Assembly: GCA_963840025.1 (NCBI GenBank)
Contig: CAWIXI010000019.1
Coordinates: 44,485 to 108,484, forward strand
From: an uncultured Planctomycetota bacterium
Lineage (GTDB): Bacteria; Planctomycetota; Planctomycetia; Pirellulales; Lacipirellulaceae
Reading direction: 5' to 3'
DNA: 64,000 nucleotides
Positions 38,434 through 64,000 of the stretch are shown here, in pieces (position 1 is the stretch's first letter; every line of letters starts with the position of its first letter). The notes beneath the pieces are model-generated. The model was not told where the DNA came from, did no database searches, and saw only the letters and a program-made list of their open reading frames with translations. A program made the position numbers and the translations under genes.

Positions 38434-39027
38434 ATGGCACAACTGCTTTTCGTGAGACAATACACAGTGATGTCGAACCTTTGTCGTCACATTTGTTGTA
38501 TCCTTGCCGCAGTCTGCTCACTCCAAACGTGCGCGGCGGCGGACAGGGCAGCTCGGCACGACGCAGTTCAACAGCATCTCAGAGATGAAATACGCTTGCT
38601 CGGCCATCGAAACTGGATCGTGATCGCCGACATGGCTTACCCCAAGCAGGTGAGTCCGGGTATCGAAACGGTGTACGTTGGCGGCGACCACCTGAGCGCA
38701 ATTCGTGAAGTGATCGACACGGTCAACGACTCCCCGCACGTCCGGCCAGTGGTCTACCTCGATAAGGAACTCAGCGCAGTTTCCGACACTGACGCGCCGG
38801 GTATCGGCGCTTTTCGCGAGGGATTGGCCAAAGTGTTGGATACGAACGAGACTACCAACCTACCGCACGAAGCCATGCTGGCCAAATTGGATAAGGCAGC
38901 CAAGACCTACACAGTAGTGATTCTCAAGACCGATTGCACCCTTCCTTACACAACCGTCTTTGTAAGACTTGAATGCGGTTATTGGTCCGACGCCGCAGAA
39001 AAACGCATGCGGAAATCGTTGCAGTAG
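38434..39027 (+). CDS. secreted hypothetical protein with remote RbsD/FucU (sugar mutarotase/pyranase)-like features
   Basis: Intact ORF, probable start ATG 38470 (MSNLCRHICCILAAVCSLQTCAA signal peptide). LLGHRNWIVIADMAYP and the C-terminal KTYTVVILKTDCTLPYTTVFVRLECG resemble the RbsD/FucU blocks (MGHGDEIV.ADA.FP ... ITGE...YGNI.L..G) by eye only. Confidence 0.4.
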   Translation: MAQLLFVRQYTVMSNLCRHICCILAAVCSLQTCAAADRAARHDAVQQHLRDEIRLLGHRNWIVIADMAYPKQVSPGIETVYVGGDHLSAIREVIDTVNDSPHVRPVVYLDKELSAVSDTDAPGIGAFREGLAKVLDTNETTNLPHEAMLAKLDKAAKTYTVVILKTDCTLPYTTVFVRLECGYWSDAAEKRMRKSLQ

Positions 39028-39100
39028 GTTTGCCCACCTTTGTATGTGGCGCGGTGAACAAATCACATTGCTCGCCGATGCCGTCAAGGAACTCGATAGA

Positions 39101-41899
39101 ATGTACCTCCTGCAGAACGCTCCGCGCAAGACCTGCTCGCCTATCGCCTTCCACTCGGGAATTGGCCGGCGGGTTGCGGCGCTCGCAGCTCTTGCGCTAG
39201 CGTGTGTAGTGCAATCGCGTTCGGCCGACGGCGAGCGGCTCCCGGAGTGTGCTCTACGAATGCCGCCTCAAGTGGTTGAGAAGTTGAGCGGCGATCAGGT
39301 GATGCGCCAATTGAGCGATGACTCGGACAAGACCCTTGCCGTGAAAAAATTCGACCCCGAGTGGGTGCAGTCCTTGGCTGACCGGGGAAAGCCGATTGTT
39401 TACACACGGGAAAACAGTGCTGATTTTGAATATATCGGCATGCCCATCGGAGGGATCGCGGCTGGGCAGGTGTACTTGGGTGGCGATGGCAAACTGTGGT
39501 ATTGGGATGTCTTTAATACCAAGAATACGCGAGACACGCATGGCGTTCGGAGCTACGCCCAGCCATACAGAAGATCGGATACCGACGATCCCGCTGTGAA
39601 TACGCTCAAACAGGGCTTTGCGATCCGCCTGCACTCAGCCAATAAGTCAATCACAAAGTCGCTTGACCGCAGTGGATTCACGCACATCACCTTTAAGGGA
39701 CAATATCCGATCGGTGAAGTAACGTATTCCGACGATAGCCTTCCCGTAGACATCAAGTTGCAGGCGTTCAGTCCGTTTGTCCCGTTGGACCTGGAAAGCT
39801 CCAATTACCCGGCGACAGTATTGGTCTATTCGGTCACCAACACGGGAGAAGGAGATGTAACTGGCGAAGTGTTCGGCTGGCTGGAAAACGCGGTCTGCCT
39901 TGAGAGCAAACGGTTGCGCAGTATTGCGCTGCGCAATCGAGTTGAACAAGAGCCCCGTCTCACGATGCTGCAGTGTGACGCACTGGAGCCCCAACGGTCG
40001 GACGATGATAAGAGAGAGACTCATCCGGTTCAACAGCTGCCCGACTACGGGTCGATGGCGCTGGCCGTCCTCGCCGAGAAACCCGCAGCCGTGGCGACGA
40101 CGGACTTCAGTCCCCCAGATGGCCCGTTGACTGCGAAACAGAATTCCGTTTCACGTTCGGAAGATTCTTCGCCGGTCGGAGCAGTCGGGGCCCGATTCCA
40201 CCTCAAGCCGGGCGAATCGAAACAAGTTCGCTTCGTGTTGGCTTGGTATTTTCCCAATACGAGCGGTTTCCCGATCAGCACCCCTCAAGGCCGCTATTAT
40301 GGTGCTCGATTCGATTCAGCTGCCGCAGTCGCTCGGGAGATCGCGGACAAATGGGATTACTTGACGACGGAAACTCGTCGGTGGCGAGACACTTGGTACG
40401 AATCGACGCTGCCCTATTGGTTTCTCGACCGTACATTCCTGAACACGTCCTGTTTGGCAACCAACACGTGCTATTTGTTCCGCGATGGGCGATTCTACGG
40501 CTACGAAGGCGTCTACCACGGTCACGGCACCTGCACTCACGTTTGGGGCTACGTGCAGGCACTTGGACGGCTGTTTCCCGTGCTCGAACAACGCCTGCGA
40601 GAAATGGTCGACTTCAAGCCCGGCGTCGGATTCGATCCGTCGACCGGAGAGATCTTTCACCGCGGTGAGAGCTGGAAGAAGGATTTCGTCGACGGTCAGT
40701 CGGGAGTCATCTTGCGCACGTACCTTGTGCACGAAATGCAGCCTGACGATGCCTTTTTAAATCGCGTTTATCCGGCCCTTAAGAAGGCGATGAATTTTTT
40801 GACCAACGAGTATGATGCCGACCGAGACGGCATTTTGACCGGCGCCCAATTCAACACGCTTGACGCGGCGTGGTACGGCAAAATTACGTGGCTCAGCCTG
40901 CATTACACAGCGGCTCTGCGCGCGGCTGCGGCGATGGCGGATGAAGTCGGCGACAACGTCTACGCCGAGGACTGTCGGCGACTTGCCGATCGTGGCAGAG
41001 AGTACATCGAATCGAATCTCTTTAACGGCGAGTACTTTTTTCACGAGGCCGATCCGGAACACCCGGAATCGCCCGGCAGTTACAACGGTTTGGAATATAG
41101 CCAGCTCCTCGGCCAAAGCTGGGCGTACCAAGTGGGCCTGGGTCCGATTCTCGATCCGGCGAAAGTGAGTACGCACCTCCGGTCGCTCTGGAAATACAAT
41201 TTTACGACAGACGTGGGACCCTTTCGCGAAAAATATTCTAACGGTCGTTGGTTTGCGCTGCCGGGCGAGGGGGGGATCATTGCTTGCACCTGGCCCCACG
41301 GTGGCGACGAAGCACTCCAACTCGGCAAACCGGGCCTTGCCGGCTATCTCAATGAGTGCCAACCCGGCTACGAATGGGCCGTGACGTCGCTGATGATGTG
41401 GCACGGCATGCCGTACCACGCCCTCGCGCACACGCGGACCATGCACGAGCGTTACGATGGTTCCAAGCGCAACCCTTGGAACGAGGTCGAGTGGGGCGAT
41501 CACTATTCGCGTTCCATGGCCAGTTACGGCGTATTCACTGCGGTTTGTGGCTTCGAATACAACGGGCCGCACGGCTACATCGCTTTTTCTCCCCGGATTA
41601 CTCCGGAGCGATTTAAGGCGGCGTTCACGGCCGCCCAAGGTTGGGGAACCTTTTCCCAACAACGTGACGGCTCGACGCAGAACGAGACCCTCTCAATCCG
41701 CTGGGGAAAATTGCGGTTAATCTGTCTGGCGTTTGACCTGCCCGCCGGAAGAAAGCCGACGTCGGTGCGAGTTGTCGCGTCCGGAAATGAAATCGCCACC
41801 GACTACACCACCCGCGACAATCGCATCATGCTGAGCCTGCGGGAGCCTGTGAACATCACGAAGGGAGAATCGCTGTCGGCCGAGATCTCCTACGAATGA
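39101..41899 (+). CDS. GH116-family glycoside hydrolase (GBA2-type beta-glucosidase/glucosylceramidase-like)
   Basis: Long intact ORF. Start taken at ATG 39101 to avoid overlap with 38434..39027. It has a signal peptide, IGMPIGGIAAGQVYLGGDGKLWYWDVFN (GH116 N-terminal signature) and YHGHGTCTHVWGYVQALGRLFPVLE (catalytic-domain signature). Confidence 0.85.
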   Translation: MYLLQNAPRKTCSPIAFHSGIGRRVAALAALALACVVQSRSADGERLPECALRMPPQVVEKLSGDQVMRQLSDDSDKTLAVKKFDPEWVQSLADRGKPIVYTRENSADFEYIGMPIGGIAAGQVYLGGDGKLWYWDVFNTKNTRDTHGVRSYAQPYRRSDTDDPAVNTLKQGFAIRLHSANKSITKSLDRSGFTHITFKGQYPIGEVTYSDDSLPVDIKLQAFSPFVPLDLESSNYPATVLVYSVTNTGEGDVTGEVFGWLENAVCLESKRLRSIALRNRVEQEPRLTMLQCDALEPQRSDDDKRETHPVQQLPDYGSMALAVLAEKPAAVATTDFSPPDGPLTAKQNSVSRSEDSSPVGAVGARFHLKPGESKQVRFVLAWYFPNTSGFPISTPQGRYYGARFDSAAAVAREIADKWDYLTTETRRWRDTWYESTLPYWFLDRTFLNTSCLATNTCYLFRDGRFYGYEGVYHGHGTCTHVWGYVQALGRLFPVLEQRLREMVDFKPGVGFDPSTGEIFHRGESWKKDFVDGQSGVILRTYLVHEMQPDDAFLNRVYPALKKAMNFLTNEYDADRDGILTGAQFNTLDAAWYGKITWLSLHYTAALRAAAAMADEVGDNVYAEDCRRLADRGREYIESNLFNGEYFFHEADPEHPESPGSYNGLEYSQLLGQSWAYQVGLGPILDPAKVSTHLRSLWKYNFTTDVGPFREKYSNGRWFALPGEGGIIACTWPHGGDEALQLGKPGLAGYLNECQPGYEWAVTSLMMWHGMPYHALAHTRTMHERYDGSKRNPWNEVEWGDHYSRSMASYGVFTAVCGFEYNGPHGYIAFSPRITPERFKAAFTAAQGWGTFSQQRDGSTQNETLSIRWGKLRLICLAFDLPAGRKPTSVRVVASGNEIATDYTTRDNRIMLSLREPVNITKGESLSAEISYE

Positions 41900-41958: not shown

Positions 41959-43538
41959 ATGCGAAGCGGTTTCTCGCCTAAAACGTTACGTCGACTCGCG
42001 CTGCCCCTGCTTGCTGGCGTGTTTGCTGTGTCGGCTCTGCTCGTGCCGGCGACGCGACTTTACGCCGACGAGGTGAAAACCGCCCCGCCCGAATTTCAAC
42101 CGACTTGGAAGTCGCTAGCCAAGCATCAGGCGGCACCAGAGTGGTTTCGAGACGCCAAGTTCGGCATTTATTTCCATTGGGGCGTCTATTCCGTACCGGC
42201 CTTTGGCAACGAGTGGTATCCGCGATGGATGTATTTCAAAGGCAGTGACGACTACGAACATCACGTGAAGACCTACGGTGACCCGAACAAATTCGGCTAC
42301 CAGGACTTTGTGCCAATGTTTAAGGCCGAGAATTTTGACGCGGACCAGTGGGCAGAGTTGTTCAAGAAGGCGGGCTCGCTTTGCCGGACCGGTCGCCGAA
42401 CACCACGACGGTTTTGCCATGTGGAAAAGCAAAGCCACTCCCTGGAACGCCTATGACATGGGGCCGCATCGCGACATCGTCGGCGAACTCGAGAAATCGA
42501 TTCGCGGTCAAGGGATGAAGTTTATCACCACGTTTCACCATGCCCGCAATCTTCAGCGTCCGATCACTTCGGGCAAACCGTATCCGGACCGCTCTTACGG
42601 GCACGACAGCCATTATCCGCCAATTCCCGGAATGCCCACGTCGACGAACGACCCTCAGCTGTCCCTGCTCTTCGGCCGCCTGCCGGAAGCAGTATGGCTG
42701 GATCGAATTTGGTTCGGCGAGCTGAAGGAAGTCATCGACGCCTACCACCCGGACATGATTTGGTTCGACGGCTGGCTGGATCGGATACCCGAGCAGAAGC
42801 GGCTCGAATTCGCCGCGTACTACCTCAACGAGGCTGCCAAGCGCAGGCAAGACGTTGTCATCACGCACAAGGATAAGGACTTGCCGGACGACATGTCGGT
42901 CCCCGACTACGAGAAAGGCCGCATGAAAGACCTGACCGATTTCTGGTGGTTGACCGACGACACGATCAGCAAGGGTAGCTGGTGCTATACGGAGGACTTG
43001 CAGATCAAACCCGTGTCCGACGTGCTCCACGTCCTGATCGACATCGTGAGCAAGCGCGGCGTGCTATTGCTGAACATTTCGCCCAAAGCAGACGGAACGA
43101 TACCAGACAACCAGCGTGCGGTACTGCTGACGATGGGAGACTGGCTCGGCAAATACGGCGAGGCGATCTACGACACTCGTCCGTGGATTATTTACGGCGA
43201 AGGTCCCACGAAGATGGATCAGGGGTGGACACTTTGTCAAGTCGCTCACTTACAGCGCAAATGACGTGCGTTATACGCGGTCCAAGGACGGATCCATCAT
43301 TTACGCAACCGTGCTGGGGCGCCCTGAGATCGGCAAGCAATTGCTGCTCAAGTCCTTTGCGGACACGCGGATCGACGGCGACTTGTCGGTCGATAAGGTT
43401 TCCCTCCTCGGCTCCACCGATGACGTCACGTTTTCCAAGACAAAGGACGGCTTGAGCATCACGGTACCGCAGCATGTGCCCGACAACCTGGCAAACGTTT
43501 TCAAGCTCGATGTTACAGGCTCGGCAACGGTCCGTTGA
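41959..43538 (+). pseudogene. GH29 alpha-L-fucosidase, two frame breaks
   Basis: A signal peptide and WFRDAKFGIYFHWGVYSVPAFGNEWYPRWMY are in ORF 41959..42456. RFAGPVAEHHDGFAMWKS...GVLLLNISPKADGTIP is in ORF 42278..43264. GHFVKSLTYSANDVRYTRSKDGSIIYATVLG... is in the frame of ORF 43266..43538. Breaks lie near 42373 and at the G-run near 43222-43228. Confidence 0.85.
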
Positions 43539-45346: not shown

Positions 45347-46826
45347 ATGCAATCGAAATCACACTGCCGGCTTCTGGTCGCTTGCTTGCTAATGGGTTGG
45401 GGTTTCCAATCGCTGTTGCCGAGCACGTTCGAATGCGGCGGAAGCGGCTAAAGTCCGTCAGCCGAACGTCATCATCCTGTTTGTCGACGATTGGGGATGG
45501 ACCGACGCCAAATGCCTGGGCAGTGATTTTTATGAGACGCCCAACATCGATCAATTCTTCGCGGACAGCGTGGGTTTTGACAACGCCTATTCAGCCTGCA
45601 CCGTTTGTTCTCCTACCCGGGCTGCCTTGATGACGGGCATGTACCCCGCCCGCCTGCACCTGACCGATTATATTCCGGGCTCCCGCCAACCTCCCGGCCC
45701 TTTGAAAGAACCGAAATGGACGGAGCGACTGGAGCTCCGCTACGTGACGATTGCCGAGGCGCTGCACGACGCCGGTTATCGCACGGCTCACATCGGCAAA
45801 TGGCACCTCACCCCGTTTCAGGACGACCTGGTAGCGGATTATCTGCCAGAGCACCAGGGCTTCGACGTAAACATCGGCGGCAACAAGTGGGGGCAGCCTG
45901 GCAGCTACTATTATCCGTACAAGCACAACGAACGAACCATCGGAAAACTCCCGCCCGGCGGTAAAAAGGGAGAATACCTGACGGACCGGCTGACGGACGA
46001 AGCAGTCAAGCTCGTCCGACAGTGGGCCGACCAGGCCGTTCTTCATCTACTTCGCTTATTATCCGTGCACACGCCGATCGAGCCCAGGCCAGATTTACGC
46101 GACGAGTTCGCAAAGCGTTTGAAACCTGGGTTACGCCACCACAATCCGGGGTATGCGGCCATGGTGAAGTCGGTGGACCAGAGCGTCGGACGCGTGAGAG
46201 CGACGCTCAAGGAATTGGGCATTGACGACCGCACGATCATCATTCTGGCAAGCGACAATGGCGGACTGGCACGCCGCAGCGGGATTACCGACAATACGCC
46301 GCTGCGAGCAGGCAAAGGCAGTGTCTACGAAGGAGGTGTGCGCGTTCCAACGGCGGTCTATTGGCCCGGCGTTACGAAAGGTGGTCCCGTCTGCGACGAC
46401 CCCATCATTACCATGGATTTCTATCCCACGATCCTTGAAATGACAAACACCGCTGGCGATGCGACGCACAATGCCAACGTCGACGGTTTGAGTCTCGTGC
46501 CGTTGCTCCGTGATCCCAAAGCTACTCTCGGACGGAAGGCGATCTACTGGCACTTCCCTCACTACCACCCCGGCGGGGCGACTCCCTACGGGGCGGTTCG
46601 GGCAGGTCCATGGCGACTGGTCGAGTTCTACGACGACGATCGCGCGGAACTTTACAATTTGAGCGATGACTTGGGCGAAACACAAAACGTTGCGGCTCAG
46701 CATCCTGACCAGGTCGCGCGGCTGCGCAACATGTTGCACACCTGGCGCAAACAAGTCGGCGCCCAGATGCCGACGCACGTTCCGGGTTATTCAACCACAC
46801 GCGTTTCCAAGACGAGCACCCGATGA
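45347..46826 (+). pseudogene. Cys-type S1 sulfatase, three frame breaks (one compensating pair)
   Basis: The signal peptide MQSKSHCRLLVACLLMGWGFQSLL starts at ATG 45347 (frame 2). The frame of ORF 45570..46826 has KVRQPNVIILFVDDWGWTDAKC...CTVCSPTRAALMTGMYP...GKWHL. Within it, QWADQAVLHLLRLLSVHTP should read QWADQPFFIYFAYYSVHTP. Indels lie near 45430, 46035 and 46065. Confidence 0.85.
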
Positions 46827-48147
46827 AATCAATCATCCGCGTTCTTTCCGTAGTCTGTGTGCTGAGCTGTTCGGCGGCGAATTGCTTTTCAGCCCAGCCG
46901 AATATCGTGTTGATCATGGCGGACGACCTCGGTTATGAAACAGTCGGTGCGGACGGCGGCACGAGCTACAGCACGCCGGTGCTCGATCGACTCGCCGCAA
47001 CCGGGCGCGCTTCACCAATAGTTTCGCCCAGCCCCTTTGTACGCCGACCCGCTGCCAGTTAATGACCGGCCGGTCCAACTCGCGGAATTACGTCAAGTTC
47101 GGCAAGCTCGATCGAAACGAAGTGACTTTCGGCAATTTGCTGCAACAGGCGGGGTACAAGACCTGCGTGGCGGGGAAGTGGCAGCTTGGTCAGGAAGTGG
47201 ACTCGCCGCAACATTTTGGATTCGACGAGTCGTGTCTTTGGCAGCACACGCGCCGACCACCTCGATATGCGAACCCCGGCTTGGAAATAAACGGCAAAGA
47301 GAAGAATTACTCGCAAGGTGAATATGGTCCTGACCTGGTCGCCGATTTCGGCATCGACTTCATCACCCGGCACCAATCCGAGCCGTTTTTTCTCTACTAT
47401 CCCATGATCCTGACTCACGCGCCCTACCAACCGACGCCGGATAGCGTCGACTGGGATCCGCGGATTGCCGACGCGCGGCAGGGCCACAACCGGCGACATT
47501 TCGGCGATATGGTCGAATATATGGACAAGTTGGTCGGACGCGTGGTTTCTCAATTGGACAAACTGAATCTGCGTGGCAAGACGCTCATCATTTTCCTGGG
47601 TGACAACGGCACTGGTCGAGGCGTTCGTTCGAAGCTCGGCGACCAGGAGATCCTAGGTGGCAAGGGGCGGACGACAGCCGCCGGGATGCACGTACCGATG
47701 GTCGTCAATTGGCCCGGTCACATTGACCCACAGGTTTGCTCAGACCTGGTCGATACCACGGACATTTTGCCGACGTTGCTCGACGCTGCCGGCGTCGCGA
47801 AACCTACGTCGATTGAGTTGGACGGCGTCAGCTTCCTACCGCAACTTCTCGGTGAAACTGGCCAACCCCGAGCATGGATTTTCACCTGGTATTGCCCGAG
47901 GCCGGACCGAGATCCCACGGTTTGCAGATTCGCATTCGATCATCAGTTCAAACTGTATGGTTCCGGAGAGTTCTTTGATATCGAACAGGACCCATTGGAG
48001 CAACGGCCGCGCCGCGTCGCCGACCTGAAAGGAGACGAGGCGCGGGCAGCCCAGGTTTTGCAGGCGGCGCTTGATAAGTATCGAGGAGTGAGGCCACCCA
48101 ATCTCGCCATTGGCAATAGCCATGCAAAACGAGTGAAGTCAAGATAA
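46823..48147 (+). pseudogene. Cys-type S1 sulfatase, one frame break
   Basis: The ATG overlaps the upstream stop (ATGA). A signal peptide and [22 protein letters not shown] are in ORF 46823..47062. [25 protein letters not shown]...GKWQLG...FLGDNGT is in the frame of ORF 47062..48147. The break lies near 46990-47000. Confidence 0.85.
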
Positions 48148-48168: not shown

Positions 48169-50551
48169 ATGGTTCACAGCCGTCGATTCTGCGTTGAAGT
48201 AGGCGTCTTGATAGTGGCCGCGTTCAGCCTCTGGGGTGAGTTGGCGTATGGGGAGGCGGATTCAACGCCCGAGCTGTGCTACGATCGCCCGGCCAAGCAG
48301 TGGACCGAAGCGCTGCCGGTCGGCAACGGGCGGCTCGGTTGTATGGTGTTCGGCGGCGTCGACGAAGCCCGTTACCAGTTCAACGAAGACACGCTCTGGA
48401 CCGGCGCACCGCATGACTACGCTCACCCGGGCGCCGCAAAATATCTGCCACGAATCCGACAGTTGCTATTTGAAGGCCGACAACATGATGCCGAGGAGCT
48501 TGCACAACAAGAGTTCATGTCGATACCTCTCCATCAATGCGCCTACCAGCCCTTCGGGGACGTCACGTTACGTTTTCAGAACCACGGCCAGGCAAAAGGT
48601 TATCAGCGCTGTCTTGACCTAAGAACGGCTACCGCGGTCACGAGTTATCGGATCGGCGACGTGCAATTCACCCGCCAGACAATCGCCAGCTACCCGGATC
48701 AGGTCCTAGTCATTCACTTGGCCTGTAGTCGGCCTAGTCACTTGAACTTCGACGCCACACTCACCAGTCCCCATCCTGATTCGCAGGTTTCGCCCCATGA
48801 CTCGACAACCCTGGTCCTGACAGGCAAAGTGGGAAACACGAAGACACATGAAGGCGATCTGGTCAAAGGAAAGATGCGCTTCGCGGCGTATCTTCGAATA
48901 TCGTCACCCGACGGCACGATTGAGGCGTCGCAGAAAGGAATCTCGGTCTCCGGCGCCAGCCAGGCAACTCTACTGCTTACTGCGGCGACAAATTTTGTCA
49001 ACTTTCGTGACCTGTCGGGCGACGCGGTGGCGCGCAGCCGGAAGCAAATGGAGAGCATTCACAAATCGTGGGAGGCGATTCATCGCGATCAGGTCAAGGA
49101 TCATCAAAACTTGTACAACCGGATCAGTTTGCGGCCTCGGCCCATCCGCTTCGCCAGCGCTGCCGACGGACAAACGAATTCTTCAGTACGCGGACCAGAA
49201 CGATCCGGGGCTCGAGACGCTGCTATTCAACTACGGTAGATACCTGATGATCTGCTCAAGTCGCCCGGGCAGCCAGCCCGCGAATTTACAAGGGGTGTGG
49301 AACGATAGTCTCAAGCCGCCGTGGGAAAGCAAATACACCACGAACATCAATCTGGAAATGAATTACTGGCTCGTCGAGCCGTGCGACTTGCCGGAGTGCG
49401 CCGAGCCATTGTTCCAAGCATTGAAGGAAGTCGCCGAATCCGGCCGGATCACTGCCCGCGAGCAGTATGGCGTCCCCGGCTGGGTGCTGCATCATAACTT
49501 CGACATCTGGCGAGGCGCCGCGCCGATCAATGCTTCCAACCACGGTATTTGGCCGAGCGGCGGGGCCTGGCTGTGCCAACAACTCTGGGAGCACTACCTC
49601 TATTCCGGCGATGAGGAATTCTTACGCGACACGGCTTATCCATTGATGAAAGGCGCCGCCAAGTTCTTTGCCAACTATCTTGTCGAGGATCCACGCGACG
49701 ATCGGCAATGGCTGATCAGCGGTCCCAGCAATTCGCCGGAAATCGGCGGGCTGGTCATGGGGCCGACCATGGACCACCAGATCATTCGCAGCCTGTTCGC
49801 CAATACGATTGAAGCGGCGCAAATTCTCGACGTCGATCCCAAACTGCGAAATCAACTTGAAGCCCTCCGCCCGCGAATCGCCCCAAATCAAATTGGGAAA
49901 TATGGTCAGCTCCAGGAGTGGTTAGAGGATATCGACGATCCGGCGCTCAAGCATCGTCATGTTTCGCACTTGTGGGGCCTGTTCCCGGGACATGAGATTA
50001 CGTCGGACACACCGGACTTGCTTGCGGCCGCGCAGAAGTCGCTCGAATTTCGCGGCGACGAAGGTACCGGCTGGTCTCGAGCATGGAAAATTAACTTCTG
50101 GGCCCGGCTCGGCGACGGCGATCACGCCCACAAAGTACTTCAAGGTTTGCTCACGCTTACCGGATCCAGCCTCACCGACTATCGGGGTGGCGGTGTCTAT
50201 CCGAATCTCTTCGATGCTCATCCGCCGTTTCAAATTGACGGAAATTTTGGGGCGGCCAACGGAATCTGCGAAATGTTGGTCCAATCCCATCGCCGGACGA
50301 AGGACGGAACGCGCCTGATCGAGCTGCTCCCCGCCTTGCCCCACGCGTGGCCCAATGGAGAGCTGACGGGCGTGCGAACCCGGTCCGGGTTTCAAGTCGA
50401 CCTGCGGTGGTCAGCGGGGCGACTTGCAAATTGCCGTGTCCGATCGCTGCTAGGCAAGCCCGCTGTGCTCAAATATGGCGATCAAGAGACCAAGCTGACA
50501 CTCGCAGCGGGAGAAGTTGCGAACTTTGACGAACAGCTGAAAGGGCACTGA
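48169..50551 (+). pseudogene. GH95 alpha-L-fucosidase (1,2-alpha-L-fucosidase-type), one frame break
   Basis: WTEALPVGNGRLGCMVFGGVDEARYQFNEDTLWTGAP is in ORF 48169..49239. [18 protein letters not shown]...[34 protein letters not shown] is in ORF 48848..50551. The break lies near 49127-49132. Confidence 0.85.
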
Positions 50552-56948: not shown

Positions 56949-57361
56949 CGACTGTCGACCCGGTAAATCGTTCCACGCGCAAGCTGCATTGCGGCTTTGC
57001 ACGCGAATTATGGCACATCGTTGCGCATCACAACTCGTCGTCCGCCAAAGACTAAGTCACTACAACAACAAGCGAAGTAAATCTTGCCTAAATCGTGCCG
57101 ATGAAGCAACGTGTCAAAGCATCGCAACTAGTTTTCTGGCAAGGACTTATGTCTGCCGCAGATCGTGTTCGGCGCGAGCGGTCTGGGAACCTATGCGAGG
57201 CAGGTTTTGATCAGACGAAACGTAGAGTCTCGCGCACATCAAGGCGGAGTTGGCGATCGAATCCGACGAGGATTCAGAACTGGCCATGGCGCCGATCCGA
57301 AAAAGTGCGGCCAAGACATCGTCAGGACAAACACTCAACGAGAAGCAAGTCGTCGAAGCTT

Positions 57362-57389
57362 TGAGGTGGACCCCAAAAACTGGACAGCC
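57362..57389 (+). repeat. IS3-family element left inverted repeat
   Basis: It starts with TG. 22 of 28 positions match the reverse complement of 58847-58874. Confidence 0.8.
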
Positions 57390-57442
57390 TGATAAGATGG
57401 ACGTTCCCCCTGGAGGCAGGGGTCGATCAGGAGGTCTGGAGG

Positions 57443-57730
57443 ATGTCGAGGAAGCGACGGGCGTTTGGCTCGGCGTTCAAGGCGAAGGTGGCCTTGGCGG
57501 CGTGCCGTGGCGAGAAGACGACGGCCCAACTGGCGTCGGAGTACGGGGTCCATGCCAGCCAGGTGACGGCCTGGAAGAAGCAACTCCTGGCGGGGGCCGT
57601 CGGTCTGTTCGAGGATGGCCGCGGCAAGCGTGCCGAGCAATCCACGAACGAAGAAGAGCTCTACGAGCAGATCGGCCGGCTGAAAATGGAAGTCGAGTGG
57701 TTGAAAAAAAAATCTGCCGAGCTCACCTGA
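57443..57730 (+). CDS. IS3-family transposase OrfA (HTH DNA-binding subunit)
   Basis: 95-aa ORF MSRKRRAFGSAFKAKVALAACRGEKTTAQLASEYGVHASQVTAWKKQLL...LYEQIGRLKMEVEWLKKK, with an HTH plus leucine-zipper-like end typical of IS3 OrfA. Confidence 0.85.
   Translation: MSRKRRAFGSAFKAKVALAACRGEKTTAQLASEYGVHASQVTAWKKQLLAGAVGLFEDGRGKRAEQSTNEEELYEQIGRLKMEVEWLKKKSAELT
57704..57712 (+). other. A9 run = candidate programmed ribosomal frameshift (slippery) site of the IS3 transposase
   Basis: AAAAAAAAA sits at the 3' end of orfA (codons L-KKK-S). The DDE-domain ORF continues in the -1 frame. This is the established IS3-family OrfAB mechanism. Confidence 0.6.
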
Positions 57731-58560
57731 AGGAATGCGACGATGGATCGAACCGGAACACCCCGAGTTCTCGATCGCTCAACAGTGCGCTGGTGGGACT
57801 GCCGCGGTCGACGTGGTACTACCGCCCGGCCGGCGAATCGGCGGAGAATCTCGCGTTGATGCGCTCGATCGACGAGCAGTATTTGCGTACTCCGTTTTAC
57901 GGCAGCCGCAAGCTCGCGGAACTCTTGGGCGTCAATCGCAAGCGGGTGCAGCGGCTGATGCGGCGGATGGGGATCGAGGCCATTTATCCCCAGCGACGCA
58001 CTACCTGGCCCGCCGCCGGCCACCAGATTTACCCGTATTTGCTGCGGAATGTGGCGGTCCTGCGGCCCGACCAGGTGTGGGCCAGCGACATCACGTACGT
58101 GCCGCTACGGCACGGGTTTTTGTACCTCGTGGCAGTGATGGACTGGTACAGCCGCTACGTCGTCTCGTGGCGATTGTCCAACACGCTCAGCGGCAGTTTC
58201 TGCAGCGAGGCGCTCGACGCAGCGCTCTGGTTGGCGACGCCGGAGATCTTCAACAGCGATCAAGGGAGCCAATTCACGGCCACGGCGTTCACGTCGCGGC
58301 TCGAATCGCGTGGCGTGGCGATCAGCATGGATGGCCGCGGTCGGGCGATCGACAACGTGCTGGTCGAGCGGCTCTGGCGGAGCATGAAGTACGAGGAAGT
58401 GTACCTCAAGGACTATGCCGACGGCTGGGAGGCGGAAGCGTCGCTCTCGGCGTATTTCCACTTTTACAATCACCAGCGGATTCACCAAGCGCTCGGCTAT
58501 CGCACGCCGGCCGACGTATACGCCGAGCGTCGCACGACGCAAAACACGACCGCTTGTTGA
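57705..58560 (+). CDS. IS3-family transposase OrfB (DDE integrase domain); N-terminal conserved block is out of frame with the catalytic part
   Basis: The catalytic part is in the frame of ORF 57250..58560: LVGLPRSTWYYRP...YGSRKLAELLGVNRKRVQRLMRRMGI...WASDITYV...LVAVMDWYSRYVV...NSDQGSQFT...NVLVERLWRSMKYEEVY. The expected preceding block NLPSSPEGMRRWIEPEHPEFSIAQQCA lies in the frame of ORF 57735..58835, so there is an extra indel near 57790. Confidence 0.75.
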
Positions 58561-58846
58561 GACGAGAAGCGTGTGGCGAGAAAATCGAGCCCCTGGCTTG
58601 CCCCAGGACGAGCGCCGCCGGGTCGCGACGACCCTCGACACCTCCAAAAACGGTCGCTCGGACGGCGCGAGTCTCAATAAGCCGAAGCCGCTCCGTGGCG
58701 AATGCCGATGAACATCATCAAGAAATCGTCGGGCTCAATGTGGAACGCTGGTTAGTACCTCAAGAACTTACCCAGCTTCAGCGGCCGCGCGGGACCTGGG
58801 AAGAGTCCCGCGGGCCGCCAGCCCCACTACCTTAATCAACCCTGTT

Positions 58847-58874
58847 GGCTGTCCAACCAATGGGGTCCACCCCA
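58847..58874 (-). repeat. IS3-family element right inverted repeat
   Basis: GGCTGTCCAACCAATGGGGTCCACCCCA, ending in CA. See the IRL entry. Confidence 0.8.
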
Positions 58875-58976
58875 CTTGAAGAAGAACGTCAACTGCAGGA
58901 CGATACACTTATCATAACGGCCGGTTTTAATTCATGTACGCGAATGGCCGGGCTTCAAATGCACGGTGACATTGGA

Positions 58977-59900
58977 CTACGAGAATTCGTTCCTCTCGGC
59001 CCAGCGTAGTGCCGAGACAAGTCTAGCAATGCCGTCTTTCAGTGGCACCTGCGCACGATAGCCCATTGCCAGGACCCGAGCATAGCTTACCGCGTAATTG
59101 CGTTGGTCGGCGTCCTCGCCCTCATGACACTCATCAATCCTAACGGCGGGAACATAGCTGGCGATCAACTTGCCGATTTCCATTTTGGAAAAGTTCTGGC
59201 CTTCGTCGCCTAGGTTCCACACTTGACCGGCCATGTCGTCAAACCGCTCGATCGCGAACTCGAATCCCCGTGCGACATCGTCCACGTGAATGAAGCTACG
59301 CCGAAAGTGCCCTTGGTAAATGGAAAGCTGCCGCTCATGCAGTGCGCGGTGTACGAAGTCGTTGATCAACAGATCAAGCCGCATCCGTGGCGAAACGCCG
59401 TAAGCCGTCGCAATGCGATATACAATGGCATTGCACTGATCCAGCAGAATTTGTTCGCACTCCACCTTCGTCTTTGCGTAAAGACTCACCGGGCGCAATG
59501 GCGTCTCCTCTGTGCACAACAGACCTTCGACGGCGCCGTAGCAGCTGCTAGTAGATGCAAAGACCACGGGACATTGTCGCTTCGCCACCTTGGCGACAAC
59601 TCTCGTGCCTTCGACATTGGTCGATCTGGCCTCCTCCGGATCTTGCTTGCAAGCTGGATATCCCGAGACGGCCGCAAGGTGAATCAGAGTCTCGGCCTCT
59701 CGGCATGCGACCGAGAGCTCACGTACACTGCGAATATCGCCATGCTCAAAAGCGAAATTATCCCGTTTGAAGAATGGGAGCATTGGAGCGATGCCGTGCT
59801 TCAGCGAGTCGAAAACGGTGACGTGGTGGCCTTGCTCCAACAAGCACGGAACCAGTGTAGTTCCCAGGTATCCAGCCCCGCCTGTGACCACCACTTTCAT
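58977..59900 (-). CDS. NAD-dependent epimerase/dehydratase (extended SDR)
   Basis: Intact 307-aa ORF with MKVVVTGGAGYLGTTLV (G-x-x-G-x-x-G), ASTSSCYG and SLYAKTKVECE (Y-x-x-x-K). Confidence 0.85.
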   Translation of the reverse strand: MKVVVTGGAGYLGTTLVPCLLEQGHHVTVFDSLKHGIAPMLPFFKRDNFAFEHGDIRSVRELSVACREAETLIHLAAVSGYPACKQDPEEARSTNVEGTRVVAKVAKRQCPVVFASTSSCYGAVEGLLCTEETPLRPVSLYAKTKVECEQILLDQCNAIVYRIATAYGVSPRMRLDLLINDFVHRALHERQLSIYQGHFRRSFIHVDDVARGFEFAIERFDDMAGQVWNLGDEGQNFSKMEIGKLIASYVPAVRIDECHEGEDADQRNYAVSYARVLAMGYRAQVPLKDGIARLVSALRWAERNEFS

Positions 59901-60127
59901 GCTGATTTGTCCTCCGGCGATTGAATGCCAGGAGTGCGGGACTCAAGTTACGTGCACCGTCCCTCGAAGTTGCGCTCCGCAGGCTGCCGCAACGCGTTGA
60001 TCTGCTGGGCCCGGGCGAATTGGCAGACGAGCGTCGCCGTCCGCGTGTGAATCACTGTCGGGCATTCACAACCGAGCCGCCCGCTGAGATCTCTGCGTAT
60101 TGCACTGTCGATGCTATTGTCTGAGGA

Positions 60128-60949
60128 TCAGAAACCGCGCAAGTCGGTGCTTTGACGCTTCGGCAAGCCTGCTTTAGGGGTTCGCTTGAGCACCCGATAT
60201 TCGATCCCATGTGTCTCACAGTACTTGCGTTTTTCGGGTACGTCGCCATCTTCGTTAACAGCGTAAATACTTGGCTTGATTCGTGCGATTTCAGGCTCCG
60301 CGTCCAGCCAACCTTTGCCCGTGGATACATAGGCACGCTTGACAAAGCGAATCGATCCGGCCATATAGCGGCGCTGATCCTCTTTGTACATTGGGTGTCC
60401 GTCGCCCTTGAGAAGTTGAATATTGGCGTCGCTCCCGACCACGACATGCAGATCGCCGAGTTCTGAGACAACTTCAAAGAACCGGACATGTCCTGAGTGG
60501 AACCAGTCATAGCACCCGGTAACAAGCACCTTCATTTGCCTCGCCGGCTGGGACTGATCGCCGACGTCGTAAGGTTCAGGGTAGCCTTGAAGCTGCAGTT
60601 CCGGGATCACGAGATACTCAAGGCCATGTTCACCACAAAAGGTCTCCTTGCCCGCATTCGCTTGGGACTCTTCCACTGCCCAGATTGCTCCCATTTCGAC
60701 CTGGTCGAGCGGCAGGCTGTCTCGTGAAGGAACTTTGCTTAGCGACGCGCGTTCGACATAGCGAATCGCGTTGACAAGATAATGCCGCTCTTCCTGTGAA
60801 AACCTTGGCTCTGATCCTTCGATTGCACTCACGGATTCGTCCGACCACAGCAGCACATGAACTTCGCCAATCCTGCTCGCTTCTTGAAGCAATCGCATGT
60901 GGCGGGATCGCAGATCATCAAAAGCGGCACTTACTACCACCTGTCTCAT
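60128..60949 (-). CDS. protein with two tandem cytidylyl/adenylyltransferase-fold (HIGH-motif) domains; N-terminal domain degenerate
   Basis: Intact 273-aa ORF. Domain 2 has VLVTGCYDWFHSGHVRFF (canonical G-x-F/Y-D-x-x-H-x-G-H). Domain 1 has VVVSAAFDDLRSRHMRLL (H-x-G-H degraded to R-S-R-H). The start overlaps the upstream gene's stop by 4 nt. Confidence 0.7.
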   Translation of the reverse strand: MRQVVVSAAFDDLRSRHMRLLQEASRIGEVHVLLWSDESVSAIEGSEPRFSQEERHYLVNAIRYVERASLSKVPSRDSLPLDQVEMGAIWAVEESQANAGKETFCGEHGLEYLVIPELQLQGYPEPYDVGDQSQPARQMKVLVTGCYDWFHSGHVRFFEVVSELGDLHVVVGSDANIQLLKGDGHPMYKEDQRRYMAGSIRFVKRAYVSTGKGWLDAEPEIARIKPSIYAVNEDGDVPEKRKYCETHGIEYRVLKRTPKAGLPKRQSTDLRGF

Positions 60950-61755
60950 GCTGTTTTCCCACTACAGCGCACCTGGACGGAGATTCCGCCGGGCACCGGC
61001 TCTTCGCTGACGACGTACAGGTACCCGCCGCCACAGCCAGAGTACATCGCGCCTGGATAGCGTGACTGGTAGTAGCCGAGTATCCTTGTCAGATCGACTT
61101 CAATTTTCGGATGCCGGACGATATGGGGCATGAGCCGCTCCCAGCACTCCATACACTCGTTCATGGACCTGCCCAGACCATGGGCATCTTGGGCCAAGAT
61201 GCTGTCGTAGCAATCCTTGCCTGTTTGACCTAGCCGACGAACCCATTCCGGTTCCAAATGCTTTTCGGCCAGCGGGCTGTAGCCCGGTGGTCGCGGCGAT
61301 ATCGGAACCATGTGGATTATCCTTTCCAGCCAATGCGCGATGTCGGGGTCGTTATTCGACTCGATGTGACACGGGAACACGCCGCCCTCATACTCAAAGT
61401 CAAAGTCCAGTCGATTGATCCCTGGGTAGATCAAGCCGATCATATCTTGCGACCCGGATGGTTCCGCTAAGTCTCGGTTCTCCTCAGCGTATAACTGCCT
61501 GACTAATGCCGTCGGCTCGCCCGCGGGCAGCCTTCCGTCCCATAGTCGCATGGCAACCTTGCGCGTGCCGGTGGCCATACCCGCCCGCTCCAGGTACATG
61601 AACGTGGGCTCCAAACCCACGACGACCATCGAGCCAGGCGGCTCGGGATTGTGTTTGGATACGAACGGCTGGTCAATCCAGCCACCAGCAAATGCCATGC
61701 GGCCCGGAATGGCTCCAATCACCTCAGTGATGTCGTGCTTCGTGGGAAGGCTCAT
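60946..61755 (-). CDS. GHMP-kinase-like sugar kinase (short, atypical motif II)
   Basis: Intact 269-aa ORF. IPGRMAFAGGWIDQPF resembles GHMP motif I as in HddA/fucokinase-type anomeric kinases. GAMYSGCGGGYLYVV resembles motif III. The motif II position reads EPSGSQD instead of P-x-G-S-G-L-G-S-S. Confidence 0.5.
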   Translation of the reverse strand: MSLPTKHDITEVIGAIPGRMAFAGGWIDQPFVSKHNPEPPGSMVVVGLEPTFMYLERAGMATGTRKVAMRLWDGRLPAGEPTALVRQLYAEENRDLAEPSGSQDMIGLIYPGINRLDFDFEYEGGVFPCHIESNNDPDIAHWLERIIHMVPISPRPPGYSPLAEKHLEPEWVRRLGQTGKDCYDSILAQDAHGLGRSMNECMECWERLMPHIVRHPKIEVDLTRILGYYQSRYPGAMYSGCGGGYLYVVSEEPVPGGISVQVRCSGKTA

Positions 61756-61760
61756 TGTCC

Positions 61761-62150
61761 CTACGCCGATTCCAGAATGATATTGCCGTACTGAGTTGTG
61801 TCGCCGGTCCGAATCAGACCCACGGCTTGTGGCACGCGACGCTTGAATTCGACATGCGGCTCAAAGCGTATCTCAACAGGCGCCAGCAACTCGGCATATC
61901 CCTGTTGGATAGCCTCGTCGTTCTCGCGCCGAAACTCCTCGGCCATGAATGCGCTGCCGACGACAAAGCATGCGTGGATTGCCGCCAATACTTGCCGTAC
62001 GGTGGGGACATCATCGACTAGCGACAAATCGACGGTCTCCAATTGTCGCCAGTAGGGAAAGCCGCGATCGGCGACTACGATCGTGTTTGTGTGACGCACT
62101 CGCGCGATCAGGCTCAAGACGTGGGGGTTGAGGATTCCTTGTCGAAGCAT
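61761..62150 (-). CDS. RbsD/FucU family sugar pyranase/mutarotase (closest by eye to D-ribose pyranase RbsD)
   Basis: Intact 129-aa ORF. GILNPHVLSLIARVRHTNTIVVADRGFPYW...VDLSL..DVPTVRQVLAAI...FMAEE...EIRFEPHVEFK...AVGLIRTGDTTQYGNIILES aligns block by block with E. coli RbsD as recalled. Confidence 0.8.
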   Translation of the reverse strand: MLRQGILNPHVLSLIARVRHTNTIVVADRGFPYWRQLETVDLSLVDDVPTVRQVLAAIHACFVVGSAFMAEEFRRENDEAIQQGYAELLAPVEIRFEPHVEFKRRVPQAVGLIRTGDTTQYGNIILESA

Positions 62151-62162
62151 CGTCGTGGCTCC

Positions 62163-63188
62163 TTAACTCACCGTCCTTTTGCCGGCCTTGCGATCGTTGT
62201 ACTGCTGCTCGATCCAAGCATAAGTCTTCGACAGACCTTCACGGAATGGCGTGCTTGGCTCCCAGCCTAAGATGCGTTTGATCATCGCGTTGTCGCTATT
62301 GCGGCCGGCGACGCCCCGGGGCGCATCGAGCTGGTAGTCGCGCTCCAGCTTCACGTCGCCAATTTCTTCCGCCAAGCTTACCAATTGGTTGACGGAGATT
62401 AGCTCACTGGAACCGAGATTGATCGGCGTGGCGACGAGCTCGTCACAGTGCGTAATACGATCGACGCCATTGACACAGTCATCAACAAACATAAAGCTCC
62501 GGGTCTGCGTGCCATCGCCCCAGACTTCAATCCGTCGCGAGCCGGTTGCCTTTGCATCAATCACCTTCCGGCAGATGGCCGCCGGCGCTTTCTCACGCCC
62601 GCCGTCCCAGGTGCCGTACGGCCCGTAAACGTTATGGAAGCGAGCAATGAAGGTCTTCATGCCGCGTTCATGCCAGTACTCCTGACAGAACATTTCAGAA
62701 ATAAGCTTTTCCCAACCATAACCGCGTTCTGCCATCGCCGGGTACGCATCCGATTCCTTCAAGGCCCGGACATTTGGGTCTTTCTGAAGCTCCGTGTTGT
62801 ATGCACAGGCTGACGACGAAAAGAAATATCGTTGGGCACCGGCTCGGTAGGAGGCTTCCAGCATATGCGTGTTGATCAAGATGCTGCGTAGGCATTGGAT
62901 GCGATTCCGCTCGATGAATCCCATGCCGCCCATGTCGGCAGCCAGATTGTAGACTTCGACAGCGCCTGCGCATGCTTGCCCGCAGTTACCCGGACTGCTG
63001 AGATCAAGGCACAGGCTCTCGACATTGGGCAGGTGCTGGTACCACTCGGGCAGCGGCTTCTTGTCGATGGCTCGAATCCGAGTGAATCCGGCATCCTGAA
63101 AATACTTGACCAAAGCACCGGCAATAAACCCGCCGGCTCCTGCGACGACAATCAAATCGTCTTTTCCAGCTCGATCCTGCTCAGACAT
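62163..63188 (-). CDS. GDP-mannose 3,5-epimerase (GME) homologue, extended SDR
   Basis: Start taken at ATG 63188, preceded by GAGGGAAG. The 342-aa product has VAGAGGFIAG, VYNLAADMGGMGFI, FFSSSACAY, LKESDAYPA..RGYGWEKL, ARFHNVYGPYGTWDGGREKAPAAICRK, EVWGDGTQTRSFMFVDDCV and GVAGRNSDNAMIKRILGWEP. These are near-collinear with plant GME as recalled. Confidence 0.85.
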   Translation of the reverse strand: MSEQDRAGKDDLIVVAGAGGFIAGALVKYFQDAGFTRIRAIDKKPLPEWYQHLPNVESLCLDLSSPGNCGQACAGAVEVYNLAADMGGMGFIERNRIQCLRSILINTHMLEASYRAGAQRYFFSSSACAYNTELQKDPNVRALKESDAYPAMAERGYGWEKLISEMFCQEYWHERGMKTFIARFHNVYGPYGTWDGGREKAPAAICRKVIDAKATGSRRIEVWGDGTQTRSFMFVDDCVNGVDRITHCDELVATPINLGSSELISVNQLVSLAEEIGDVKLERDYQLDAPRGVAGRNSDNAMIKRILGWEPSTPFREGLSKTYAWIEQQYNDRKAGKRTVS

Positions 63189-63355
63189 TCTTCCCTCGGA
63201 TTGCGAGTGTTTCCCGGTGAACACGATCACCTGTTTCCAGCCCGCGATAGACTTGGGACACTTGTGATTTCGTCTAATTAGACGCTTGACCACTCGTCGG
63301 GTCCATGTATATCGTTGATGTATACCTAGATAATATTGACCTACTGCAGTGGCGA

Positions 63356-64000
63356 ATGTGTGGGAGCTTTCCTGCCCGTGCAGCCAAAATTCTTCTCACG
63401 TCATGTCAAGAAGGCGCGGCGTTCTACTTAGAATTGTCGCCGGACAAAAATTGCAAGTTTGCCGTCGTTTGCGGCGGTCGAGAAGAGTGCACGGGAGACT
63501 TCATCATCGACCGTTGCACCTTTCCCTACATGTCAATTGAGTTTGTGAGTCGCGGGCGCGGCACACTATGGCTCAAAGGGCAGGAGTATCCCCTCGCAGC
63601 AGGAAGCGTATTTACCTATGGTCCGGACATTGCCCACAAGATTGTCGCGGATCAAGCAGACCCATTCAGCAAGTATTTTGTCGATTTCCTTGGCAGCGGT
63701 GCACGACGGTTCATGGAGGAAAACGGCTTGCAACTCGGCACGGTCCGAAAAGTGAGCCTGCCGTTGGAACTAGAGCGGTCGCTTGACGATCTCATTTCAC
63801 ATGGCTTACGCGAAAGCGGCGCTGGCTCCAAGTTGTGCGACACACTCATGCGGTATGTCCTGTTGCTCGTAGCATCTTCGTCGTCTCCAGCCACTACAAG
63901 CCTCTCGCTGGCGCACAGTACTTACCTGCGCTGTCGTGAGCAGATTGAGAAGCAATACTTAAGCCTGCAATCTCTCGATGAAGTAGCGAAGGTTTCCTAT
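63356..64000 (+). CDS. AraC-family transcriptional regulator (cupin sensor domain + start of HTH), 3' end outside window
   Basis: Frame 2 is open from ATG 63356 to the window end, so it is absent from the ORF track. It reads ...FAVVCGGREECTGDFIIDRCTFPYMSIEFVSRGRGTLWLKGQEYPLAAGSVFTYGPDIAHKI (AraC-type cupin) ...YLRCREQIEKQYLSLQSLDEVAKVSY (start of the AraC HTH region). It is divergent from the GME operon. Confidence 0.75.
   Translation, partial: MCGSFPARAAKILLTSCQEGAAFYLELSPDKNCKFAVVCGGREECTGDFIIDRCTFPYMSIEFVSRGRGTLWLKGQEYPLAAGSVFTYGPDIAHKIVADQADPFSKYFVDFLGSGARRFMEENGLQLGTVRKVSLPLELERSLDDLISHGLRESGAGSKLCDTLMRYVLLLVASSSSPATTSLSLAHSTYLRCREQIEKQYLSLQSLDEVAKVSY

Follow-up and report, generated by a model that had tools for sequence, protein, structure and literature searches.

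In the Leloir pathway and its Isselbacher variant, a mutarotase (GalM), a GHMP-fold kinase (GalK), nucleotidyl transfer and an epimerase that is one of the short-chain dehydrogenases/reductases (SDR family; GalE) act one after another and yield a hexose-1-phosphate, in a sugar-regulated operon that is linked to glycosidases and transporters. We analysed a locus for which the same order of mutarotase, GHMP kinase, nucleotide sugar, SDR epimerase and hexose-1-phosphate, with similar linkage and regulation, can be proposed. It lies in a 64,000-nt stretch of DNA (here called the window) from an uncultured Planctomycetota bacterium (GenBank assembly GCA_963840025.1, contig CAWIXI010000019.1). The operon encodes a homologue of GDP-mannose 3,5-epimerase (abbreviated GME), an RbsD/FucU-family protein, a compact GHMP-fold kinase, a tandem nucleotidyltransferase with the HIGH signature and an extended SDR, and a gene for an AraC-family regulator is transcribed divergently from it. 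On balance we lean, by a little, towards the reading that this operon is an inducible catabolic route for L-galactose of the Leloir/Isselbacher kind, made of a three-gene core and accessories. The differences from the Leloir pathway are that an L-sugar would be used, that the carrier would be GDP and not UDP, and that a 3,5-double epimerisation would replace the 4-epimerisation. Nucleotidyl transfer in the Leloir pathway relies on GalT (HIT) or on the UGPase fold, whereas the HIGH fold is found here, and no protein of the locus is orthologous to the Gal enzymes. The likeness would therefore be one of logic, not of family membership.

The route would run as follows. The products of neighbouring GH95, GH29 and sulfatase genes would set L-galactose free from sulfated or fucosylated glycans, and the RbsD/FucU protein would anomerise it. 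The compact kinase would phosphorylate it at C1 to beta-L-galactose-1-phosphate, from which the C-terminal HxGH domain of the transferase would make GDP-beta-L-galactose. The GME orthologue would then epimerise C3 and C5, giving GDP-D-mannose, and ManC working in reverse would split GDP-mannose into mannose-1-phosphate and GTP with pyrophosphate from the step before. Mannose-1-phosphate would enter glycolysis via phosphomannomutase and phosphomannose isomerase, so that the net cost of the route would be one ATP. The AraC protein would act as the sugar sensor, and the SDR, which resembles Cj1427 of Campylobacter jejuni, would be a lineage-specific extra GDP-sugar enzyme.

FKP of Bacteroides fragilis is the nearest solved relative of the kinase by profile and has three aligned sugar contacts in common with it. 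Both also couple the kinase and pyrophosphorylase activities, FKP by fusion and the cassette by adjacent genes (fused in other lineages). The kinase part of FKP that was solved alone (9iip) has a chain length of about 360-420 residues; the kinase here has 269 and no Pfam match. The FKP pyrophosphorylase is a fused, N-terminal NTP_transferase with a beta-helix, whereas the transferase here is a HIGH-fold tandem encoded by a separate gene. FKP serves glycan fucosylation; the cassette has a GME in addition and stands under AraC or LacI control. The operon appears to work like FKP, yet it is not a member of the FKP family. The paper on FKP evolution does not mention the cassette architecture.

GME has been described from plants (AtGME, 2c59) and from Methylacidiphilum fumariolicum (MfGM35E), and the catalytic motifs of these enzymes are identical to those of the homologue here. 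Papers describe anabolic roles for it: plants use it to make ascorbate and cell wall, and for bacteria a part in lipopolysaccharide (LPS) or antibiotic synthesis has been proposed. In contrast, the GME gene here stands in a regulated glycan-harvesting context and its product belongs to a separate clade that spans several phyla. Heptose activation by HldE/RfaE or HddA-HddC, in which a kinase of the GHMP or ribokinase type is paired with a nucleotidyltransferase, offers a further comparison. RfaE domain II is a precedent for a HIGH-fold transferase that acts on a sugar-1-phosphate from an adjacent or fused kinase, and after FKP the HddA/WcbL kinases are the closest to the kinase here. Heptose activation differs from the cassette in that it handles heptose phosphates, uses ATP (RfaE) or uses GTP via a different fold (HddC), and is purely biosynthetic. 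A heptose pathway was considered for the locus and rejected, because heptose genes are absent and the kinase keeps hexopyranose contacts; the latter point also led us to reject a polyol-phosphate pathway. Full-text literature searches found no bacterial pathway through GDP-L-galactose and no paper that matches the route, so the statement of an earlier note on this DNA, that the combination of enzymes is undescribed, still stands.

The enzymes and their catalytic signatures

The epimerase was assigned to the GME family in the earlier note, and the searches agree with this. In the PDB sequence search it matched plant GME (8sg0, 2c59) with E values of 7e-80 to 1e-79, and it is about 50% identical to plant GME over its full length. 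Five signatures define GM35E and set it apart from GalE and GDP-fucose synthase (PMC8787198), and all of them are kept. These are the Gly-rich NAD-binding motif (GAGGFIAG; GAGGFIAS in plants), the SDR catalytic Tyr-x3-Lys (YGWEKL; YGLEKL in plants), the catalytic acid Cys, C145 of AtGME (SSACAY; SSACIY in plants), the catalytic base Lys, K217 of AtGME (GGREKAP; GTWDGGREKAPAA against plant GTWKGGREKAPAA), and the Arg that acidifies the Cys (GVAGRNSDN; GVRGRNSDN in plants). In GMER, His stands in place of the catalytic base Lys and Lys in place of the Cys-acidifying Arg (PMC8787198). By all five signatures, the homologue is thus predicted to be a GDP-mannose 3,5-epimerase orthologue. Its cassette orthologues in other phyla are 58-81% identical to it. 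Since a characterised bacterial GM35E reaches an equilibrium of 80:15:5 with GDP-mannose favoured (PMC6678494), the direction from L-galactose to mannose would be downhill.

The kinase had been called GHMP-like, and both profile and fold now place it with the kinases of the fucokinase/HddA type. It has no match in Pfam or NCBIfam and no significant one in the single-sequence PDB search. The Pfam models GHMP_kinases_N and GHMP_kinases_C miss the window protein, and PF08544 is reached by one distant fused homologue only. The family therefore lies outside the current curated models, although clustering of its homologues at 90% identity gives more than 7,500 clusters, none of them named. When a profile built from 32 diverse homologues was compared with the PDB, the best match was the L-fucokinase domain of FKP (E 6e-16), followed by the HddA/WcbL heptose kinases and mevalonate kinases. 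The top Foldseek matches of the AlphaFold2 (AF2) model (pLDDT 92) were all GHMP enzymes with a probability of 1.00, and TMq values to WcbL and the FKP kinase were 0.64-0.66.

Residues that bind the sugar can be compared directly. In the hidden Markov model alignment, R19, W26 and D28 of the kinase align with R592, W599 and D601 of FKP, within the N-terminal sugar-binding motif R-x-D-x-x-G-G-W-x-D (PGRMAFAGGWIDQP in the kinase, PVRIDMAGGWTDTP in FKP), and R19, G24, W26 and D28 are invariant across the 32 homologues. In the FKP structure with fucose, the anomeric O1 has R592 close to it, W599 makes a stacking contact with C4-C6, and the hydroxyls are bound at C3/C4 by D601 and T602 and at C4/C2 by Q761 and D762 (PMC11982464). 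The kinase has G101-S-Q-D104 where FKP has G759-x-Q761-D762, a match by motif and spacing only, not by residue alignment. Motif III, expected as G-A-G-G-G-G, reads SGCGGGYLYVV against GAGGGGYLYMV in FKP. A candidate for the motif II phosphate-binding loop (P-x-G-S-G-L-G-S-S-A) is the variant SGMATSTR (AGMATGTR in the window protein), which starts helix 62-71 in the model. Because the fucose contacts of FKP are conserved as R19, W26 and D28, the protein is predicted to be a minimal anomeric kinase for an L-galacto-configured sugar. FKP itself phosphorylates L-galactose and makes GDP-L-galactose in vitro, with an approximately 100-fold preference for fucose. The pocket in which FKP takes up the C5 substituent is roomy and offers it no specific protein contact (PMC11982464). 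For these reasons the sequence of the kinase cannot tell L-fucose from L-galactose.

The transferase was described in the earlier note as a tandem protein of the HIGH (cytidylyltransferase) fold. The duplication was confirmed, the N-terminal and C-terminal halves being 30% identical (E 1e-20), while the description needs correction in that the HxGH motif has been lost from the N-terminal half. Residues 141-208 match the Pfam and TIGR cytidylyltransferase-like models given in Table 1, and an NCBIfam match to RfaE domain II (adenylyltransferase) was also obtained. The relatives in the PDB are cytidylyltransferases for ethanolamine phosphate, glycerol-3-phosphate and choline phosphate. Orthologues share TGC-DWFHSGH in the C-terminal half with a conservation of at least 90%, and H151, G153 and H154 are invariant in their alignment. 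In the N-terminal half, HxGH is replaced by SAAFDDLRSRH in the window protein, with VSGSFDD conserved in the consensus. The tail LKR-PK-GLPRR-ST-LRGF is also conserved; it is like the C-terminal nucleotide-binding motif (RTEGISTT/ISSTxIR type) but carries an insertion, and it lies outside the alignments with solved enzymes. The protein thus looks like a catalytic C-terminal domain preceded by a degenerate duplicate. A predicted complex of kinase and transferase scored 0.00 and gave no verdict, which is evidence neither way.

Among the accessory proteins, the RbsD/FucU protein matches PF05025 at 104 bits (cut-off 25, E 1e-29). It reaches 93.3 bits with the NCBIfam model for D-ribose pyranase (cut-off 93) and 22.8 bits with that for L-fucose mutarotase (cut-off 141). 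The SDR matched 6vo6/6vo8 with an E value of 8.6e-76 in the PDB sequence search, and with its AF2 model (pLDDT 92) Foldseek gave a TM score of 0.94 and 40% identity to Cj1427. The titles of the Foldseek entries identify 6vo6/6vo8 as Cj1427 with NADH and GDP-D-glycero-D-manno-heptose. Cj1427 is a GDP-heptose C4-dehydrogenase and is far closer to the SDR here than any other solved SDR, the next ones being 23-28% identical. Cj1427 works in a heptose context, whereas heptose genes are lacking here and an SDR of this kind is beside the cassette in just 3 of the 80 loci described below; in one of them, from Phycisphaerae (L053), its gene is packed tightly between those for the transferase and RbsD. 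The SDR is probably a GDP-sugar C4 dehydrogenase or epimerase, and its sequence would make it, besides GME and independently of it, another enzyme of GDP-sugars at this locus. The call of an AraC-family regulator was sound: the part in the window matches AraC_binding, and the full open reading frame (ORF) on the contig (L087:790-1722) adds HTH_18 and HTH_AraC, which makes the protein complete with binding and helix-turn-helix domains.

Conservation and genomic context of the cassette

Loci were scanned with one genome per species. A close kinase was found in at least 535 species, and the counts given here out of 80 refer to the best 80 loci, in which the kinase is 63-74% identical to that of the window. 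These loci come from at least eight phyla, namely Planctomycetota, Verrucomicrobiota, Chloroflexota, Acidobacteriota, Latescibacterota, Lentisphaerota, Spirochaetota and Hydrogenedentes. The transferase gene is immediately 3' of the kinase gene in 71 loci, and the GME gene is immediately 5' of it on the same strand in 58. GME is present in 63 of the 75 loci that have at least 1.2 kb of upstream sequence. ManC is encoded in 20 loci, and in 15 loci its gene comes immediately after that for the transferase. Regulators of the AraC family (15 loci) or the LacI family (13 loci) occur in 28 loci together; the AraC proteins, which are 41-48% identical to that of the window, are encoded divergently from GME in 15. 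RbsD/FucU genes are found in 11 loci and GH29 genes in 6, and genes for sugar transporters of the ABC or SSF type in a few. The same picture of genes, including the divergent AraC-GME layout, is seen in metagenomic contigs.

The earlier note had treated five genes as one set and asked for a survey of their co-occurrence. The counts in the 80 loci identify GME, kinase and transferase as the conserved core, whereas the RbsD/FucU protein (11/80) and the SDR (3/80) are accessories. Since the core order is found in dozens of species, the arrangement is far beyond chance. Fusions were also found: an exhaustive HMMER search gave many proteins in which a single or double cytidylyltransferase-like domain stands in front of the kinase. 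Distant kinase homologues show further fusions of the types RhaM-transferase-kinase (P0184), PNP_UDP_1-transferase-kinase (P0221) and GT2-kinase (P0187). From these fusions with RhaM, a nucleoside phosphorylase and GT2 it follows that the module may serve several sugars. Insertions into or additions to the cassette were seen in some lineages. In Latescibacterota (L032, L039 and L066, at about 8800-10650), genes for a C5 cytosine DNA methyltransferase and a 236-aa protein lie between those for the kinase and the transferase. In Terriglobia/Acidobacteriota (L060, L069, L071, L076, L079 and L085), one or two TldD/PmbA-like genes follow the kinase-transferase pair.

The context of GME genes inside and outside the cassette was compared in a sample of 301 genomes of the same phylum as the window. 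Of these genomes, 3 have the kinase and 28 have GME homologues. With so rare a cassette, co-occurrence statistics across the phylum are uninformative, and the sample was used only for the contexts of GME. One other genome of the sample has the cassette, with a GME 77% identical to that of the window and the layout AraC / GME-kinase-transferase-GH29-MFS, the latter five genes being on one strand. The remaining GMEs of the sample are 43-58% identical. We scanned the neighbours of four non-cassette GMEs with 55-58% identity; two of the four adjoin genes for GT4, WecA-type or WecG glycosyltransferases and a methyltransferase, the third has a porin-like gene beside it, and the neighbours of the fourth have no Pfam match. 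A non-cassette GME homologue from the same phylum (L099:5532-7994, minus strand) lies within a frame that stays open for about 820 aa, possibly a fusion with an unidentified domain.

In a maximum-likelihood tree, 64 cassette GMEs from seven phyla are split from 12 non-cassette GMEs by a branch with an SH-aLRT support of 100, with the cautions that both groups were collected by way of the kinase and that the outgroup has long branches. The phyla are mostly, not fully, clustered within the cassette clade (12 label changes, with a minimum of 6). This pattern is compatible with some lateral spread, without proving it.

Layout and surroundings of the locus

Genes were taken from an ORF list with translations, and families were assigned by Pfam, NCBIfam and PDB searches. 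The assembly has 6.3 Mb in 25 contigs and is 86% complete. Coordinates are collected in Table 1.

Table 1. Positions in the window of the operon, its regulator and other features mentioned in the text
Feature	Position	Strand	Length	Basis or remark
GME homologue (predicted GDP-mannose 3,5-epimerase orthologue, cassette-linked clade)	62163..63188	-	341 aa	
RbsD/FucU-family mutarotase/pyranase, accessory	61761..62150	-	129 aa	PF05025
Compact GHMP-fold sugar kinase, fucokinase/HddA clade	60946..61755	-	269 aa	profile and structure model
Tandem HIGH-signature nucleotidyltransferase	60128..60949	-	273 aa	PF01467 and TIGR00125
Cj1427-like extended SDR, accessory	58977..59900	-	307 aa	PDB sequence search and AF2 model
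Divergent intergenic region GME/AraC, presumed promoter/operator	63189..63355	.		sequence read; layout recurs elsewhere
AraC-family regulator, cupin sugar-binding domain and HTH	63356..64000, runs 237 nt past the window end	+		PF02311
rve-type integrase	57250-58560	+		
Neighbouring genes, affected	48169-49239 + 48848-50551; 36985-37764 + 37424-38407; 45570-46826; 47062-48147; 42278-43264			split or N-terminally short
Second RbsD/FucU ORF	38434-39027	+		PF05025, 26.6 bits
GH116-like gene	38969-41899		976 aa	
Run of DUF1559/N-terminal-methylation proteins	27348-32936	+		type IV pilin-like

The spacings reported for the minus-strand genes (12 nt, 5 nt, an overlap of 4 nt, and 227 nt) are all exact by the ORF coordinates. 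The start codon of the GME gene is the ATG at 63188, before which stands GAGGGAAG. The AraC gene is divergent as described, and the gap of 167 nt to it is true with the ATG at 63356, which gives a protein of 293 aa (homologues have 290-291 aa); an alternative in-frame ATG at 63305 would reduce the gap to 116 nt. As the five minus-strand genes and the AraC gene have the lengths of their orthologues, none of the six carries a frame break, in agreement with the earlier description. A consensus-based promoter scan of 58600-63450 found sites no more numerous than in shuffled sequence. A terminator scan of the 227-nt spacer between the transferase and SDR genes found none, a result that says nothing on co-transcription of the SDR gene. 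Partial shares of the locus sequence were found in metagenome DNA contigs from soil, salt-marsh and sediment.

The window carries GH95, GH29 and GH116-like genes and many sulfatase genes, that is, a glycan-harvesting locus, and the GH95 family includes alpha-L-galactosidases. Several neighbouring genes (GH95, a GFO/IDH/MocA oxidoreductase, two sulfatases and GH29) are split into overlapping frames or lack the N-terminal part, the split of GH95 placing its N-domain and its catalytic domain in separate frames. A ManC homologue elsewhere in the genome (contig C3) is also read in two frames. Such split genes reflect either indel errors of the assembly or a decaying locus. A weak L-fucose-isomerase-like gene is found elsewhere in the genome, so fucose may have its own route. 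Mobile elements flank the operon and its regulator: the integrase gene lies on one side, and on the other, past the window end to the contig end, there are two DDE transposase genes at L087:2539-3624 (plus strand) and L087:4578-5375 (minus strand). The window also has a second, weaker RbsD/FucU ORF that overlaps the start of the GH116-like gene, which is followed by a GH29 gene. A run of DUF1559/N-terminal-methylation proteins, typical of Planctomycetota, is encoded 5' of the glycan-degrading genes. Along with the sulfatases, the glycoside hydrolases and the nearest protein relatives, this run indicates a planctomycete of the Pirellulales type.

A candidate route for L-galactose and its alternatives

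The family and fold of the proteins, their catalytic signatures, the conserved order of the genes, the fusions and the differing contexts of GME genes come from the data themselves. In the proposed route we infer which sugar is used, that the nucleotide is GTP, which way the flux runs and what the AraC protein responds to. The earlier note had suggested that the set salvages an L-sugar of the L-fucose or L-galactose type, activates it and connects it with the mannose pool, which fits the conserved gene order, the fusions, ManC, GH29, the transporters and the regulators. GTP is proposed only because enzymes of GDP-sugars share the cassette, and two of them, ManC and the Cj1427-like SDR, support the link to GDP. 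Several observations weigh against L-galactose catabolism of this kind. ManC is found in only a quarter of the loci (20/80) and lies outside this operon. CTP is the nucleotide of the transferase's closest solved relatives, and no nucleotidyltransferase of the HIGH fold is known to us to work with GTP. The GH29 neighbours, the FucU-type gene and the fucose contacts suit L-fucose as much as L-galactose, the kinase sequence shows no discrimination at C6, and the scores of the RbsD/FucU protein favour ribose pyranase over fucose mutarotase. Cassette GMEs are just about 50% identical to the characterised ones, so their substrate may have shifted. Finally, the kinase-transferase pair has no GME gene next to it in 12 loci, mostly from Terriglobia and Thermoguttaceae, and 4 of these 12 (L071, L076, L079 and L085) are near a gene for a GT21-like glycosyltransferase, which looks anabolic. 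The GME-less context in Terriglobia is unlike that of the main cassette and may be biosynthetic.

The most serious alternative, which we consider unlikely, is that the cassette salvages L-fucose, or both L-fucose and L-galactose, for glycans in the manner of FKP. It would then be anabolic: GDP-L-fucose would be supplied to fucosyltransferases, while GME would separately balance GDP-mannose and GDP-L-galactose or convert GDP-L-fucose to GDP-D-rhamnose, in either case for glycans of the cell surface. The retention of the fucose-binding residues of FKP in the kinase speaks for this explanation, as does the approximately 100-fold preference of FKP for fucose over L-galactose, and so do the alpha-L-fucosidases of GH29 in or beside the cassette and the presence of a FucU-family gene. 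The Terriglobia pairs near a GT21-like glycosyltransferase and the one distant homologue fused to GT2 point the same way. In GME-containing cassette loci, however, no glycosyltransferase was found among the annotated gene clusters, rarer neighbours being left unscanned, and what these loci do hold is AraC/LacI regulators, transporters and ManC. The GMEs that are encoded beside glycosyltransferases fall in a different clade. The weak L-fucose-isomerase-like gene also argues against it, since fucose may be handled separately, and we know of no use of GDP-D-rhamnose that would explain the adjacency of ManC.

It is still less probable, though conceivable, that the logic of the route is right and its carrier or sugar is different, with the HIGH-fold enzyme making a CDP- or ADP-L-sugar and the cassette GME having moved to this nucleotide or to a different hexose (L-galacto, L-gulo or talo type). 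The use of CTP by the closest solved relatives of the transferase and its match to the adenylyltransferase model of RfaE domain II are consistent with such a shift, and cassette GMEs do form a separate clade at about 50% identity to characterised enzymes. The RbsD-like score hints at a ribo- rather than an arabino-type configuration at C2, and the fusions of distant homologues with RhaM or a nucleoside phosphorylase indicate a family that spans several substrates. On the other hand, the active-site motifs of the cassette GME are nearly identical to those of plant GME, the kinase retains the L-galacto-specific contacts of FKP, and the cassette is repeatedly accompanied by two further enzymes of GDP-sugars, namely ManC and the Cj1427-like SDR. 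Chance juxtaposition of unrelated genes, with a polyol phosphate or some other non-sugar phosphate as the substrate of kinase and transferase, is very unlikely and is dismissed because the gene order is conserved in species of at least eight phyla: the likeness of the transferase to glycerol-3-phosphate and ethanolamine-phosphate cytidylyltransferases and the insertion sequence elements flanking the operon in this genome would suit it, but kinase-transferase fusions exist, and the kinase falls among the anomeric sugar kinases, whose contacts to the sugar ring it retains.

L-galactose catabolism thus remains the reading that we favour. L-galactose is supplied in nature by red-algal galactans, by rhamnogalacturonan II of pectin and by invertebrate glycans. 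Taken in its widest form, the proposal is evenly poised between true and false: bacteria of many phyla would catabolise L-galactose through GDP-L-galactose and GDP-mannose by an undescribed route in which the epimerase of plant vitamin C synthesis runs backwards, and which would employ two enzyme families that await characterisation, namely a minimal GHMP L-galactokinase and, as far as we know, the first HIGH-fold GDP-sugar pyrophosphorylase, with a degenerate duplicate domain. If this is true, bacterial GME would have a physiological role beyond the LPS and antibiotic synthesis that has been guessed for it, and two large unannotated families would receive a function. The compact kinase and the transferase would be usable in one-pot synthesis of GDP-L-sugars. 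The route would be a third way in which bacteria consume L-galactose, and with it the metabolism of Planctomycetota, Verrucomicrobiota, Chloroflexota, Acidobacteriota, Latescibacterota and further phyla would be better annotated.

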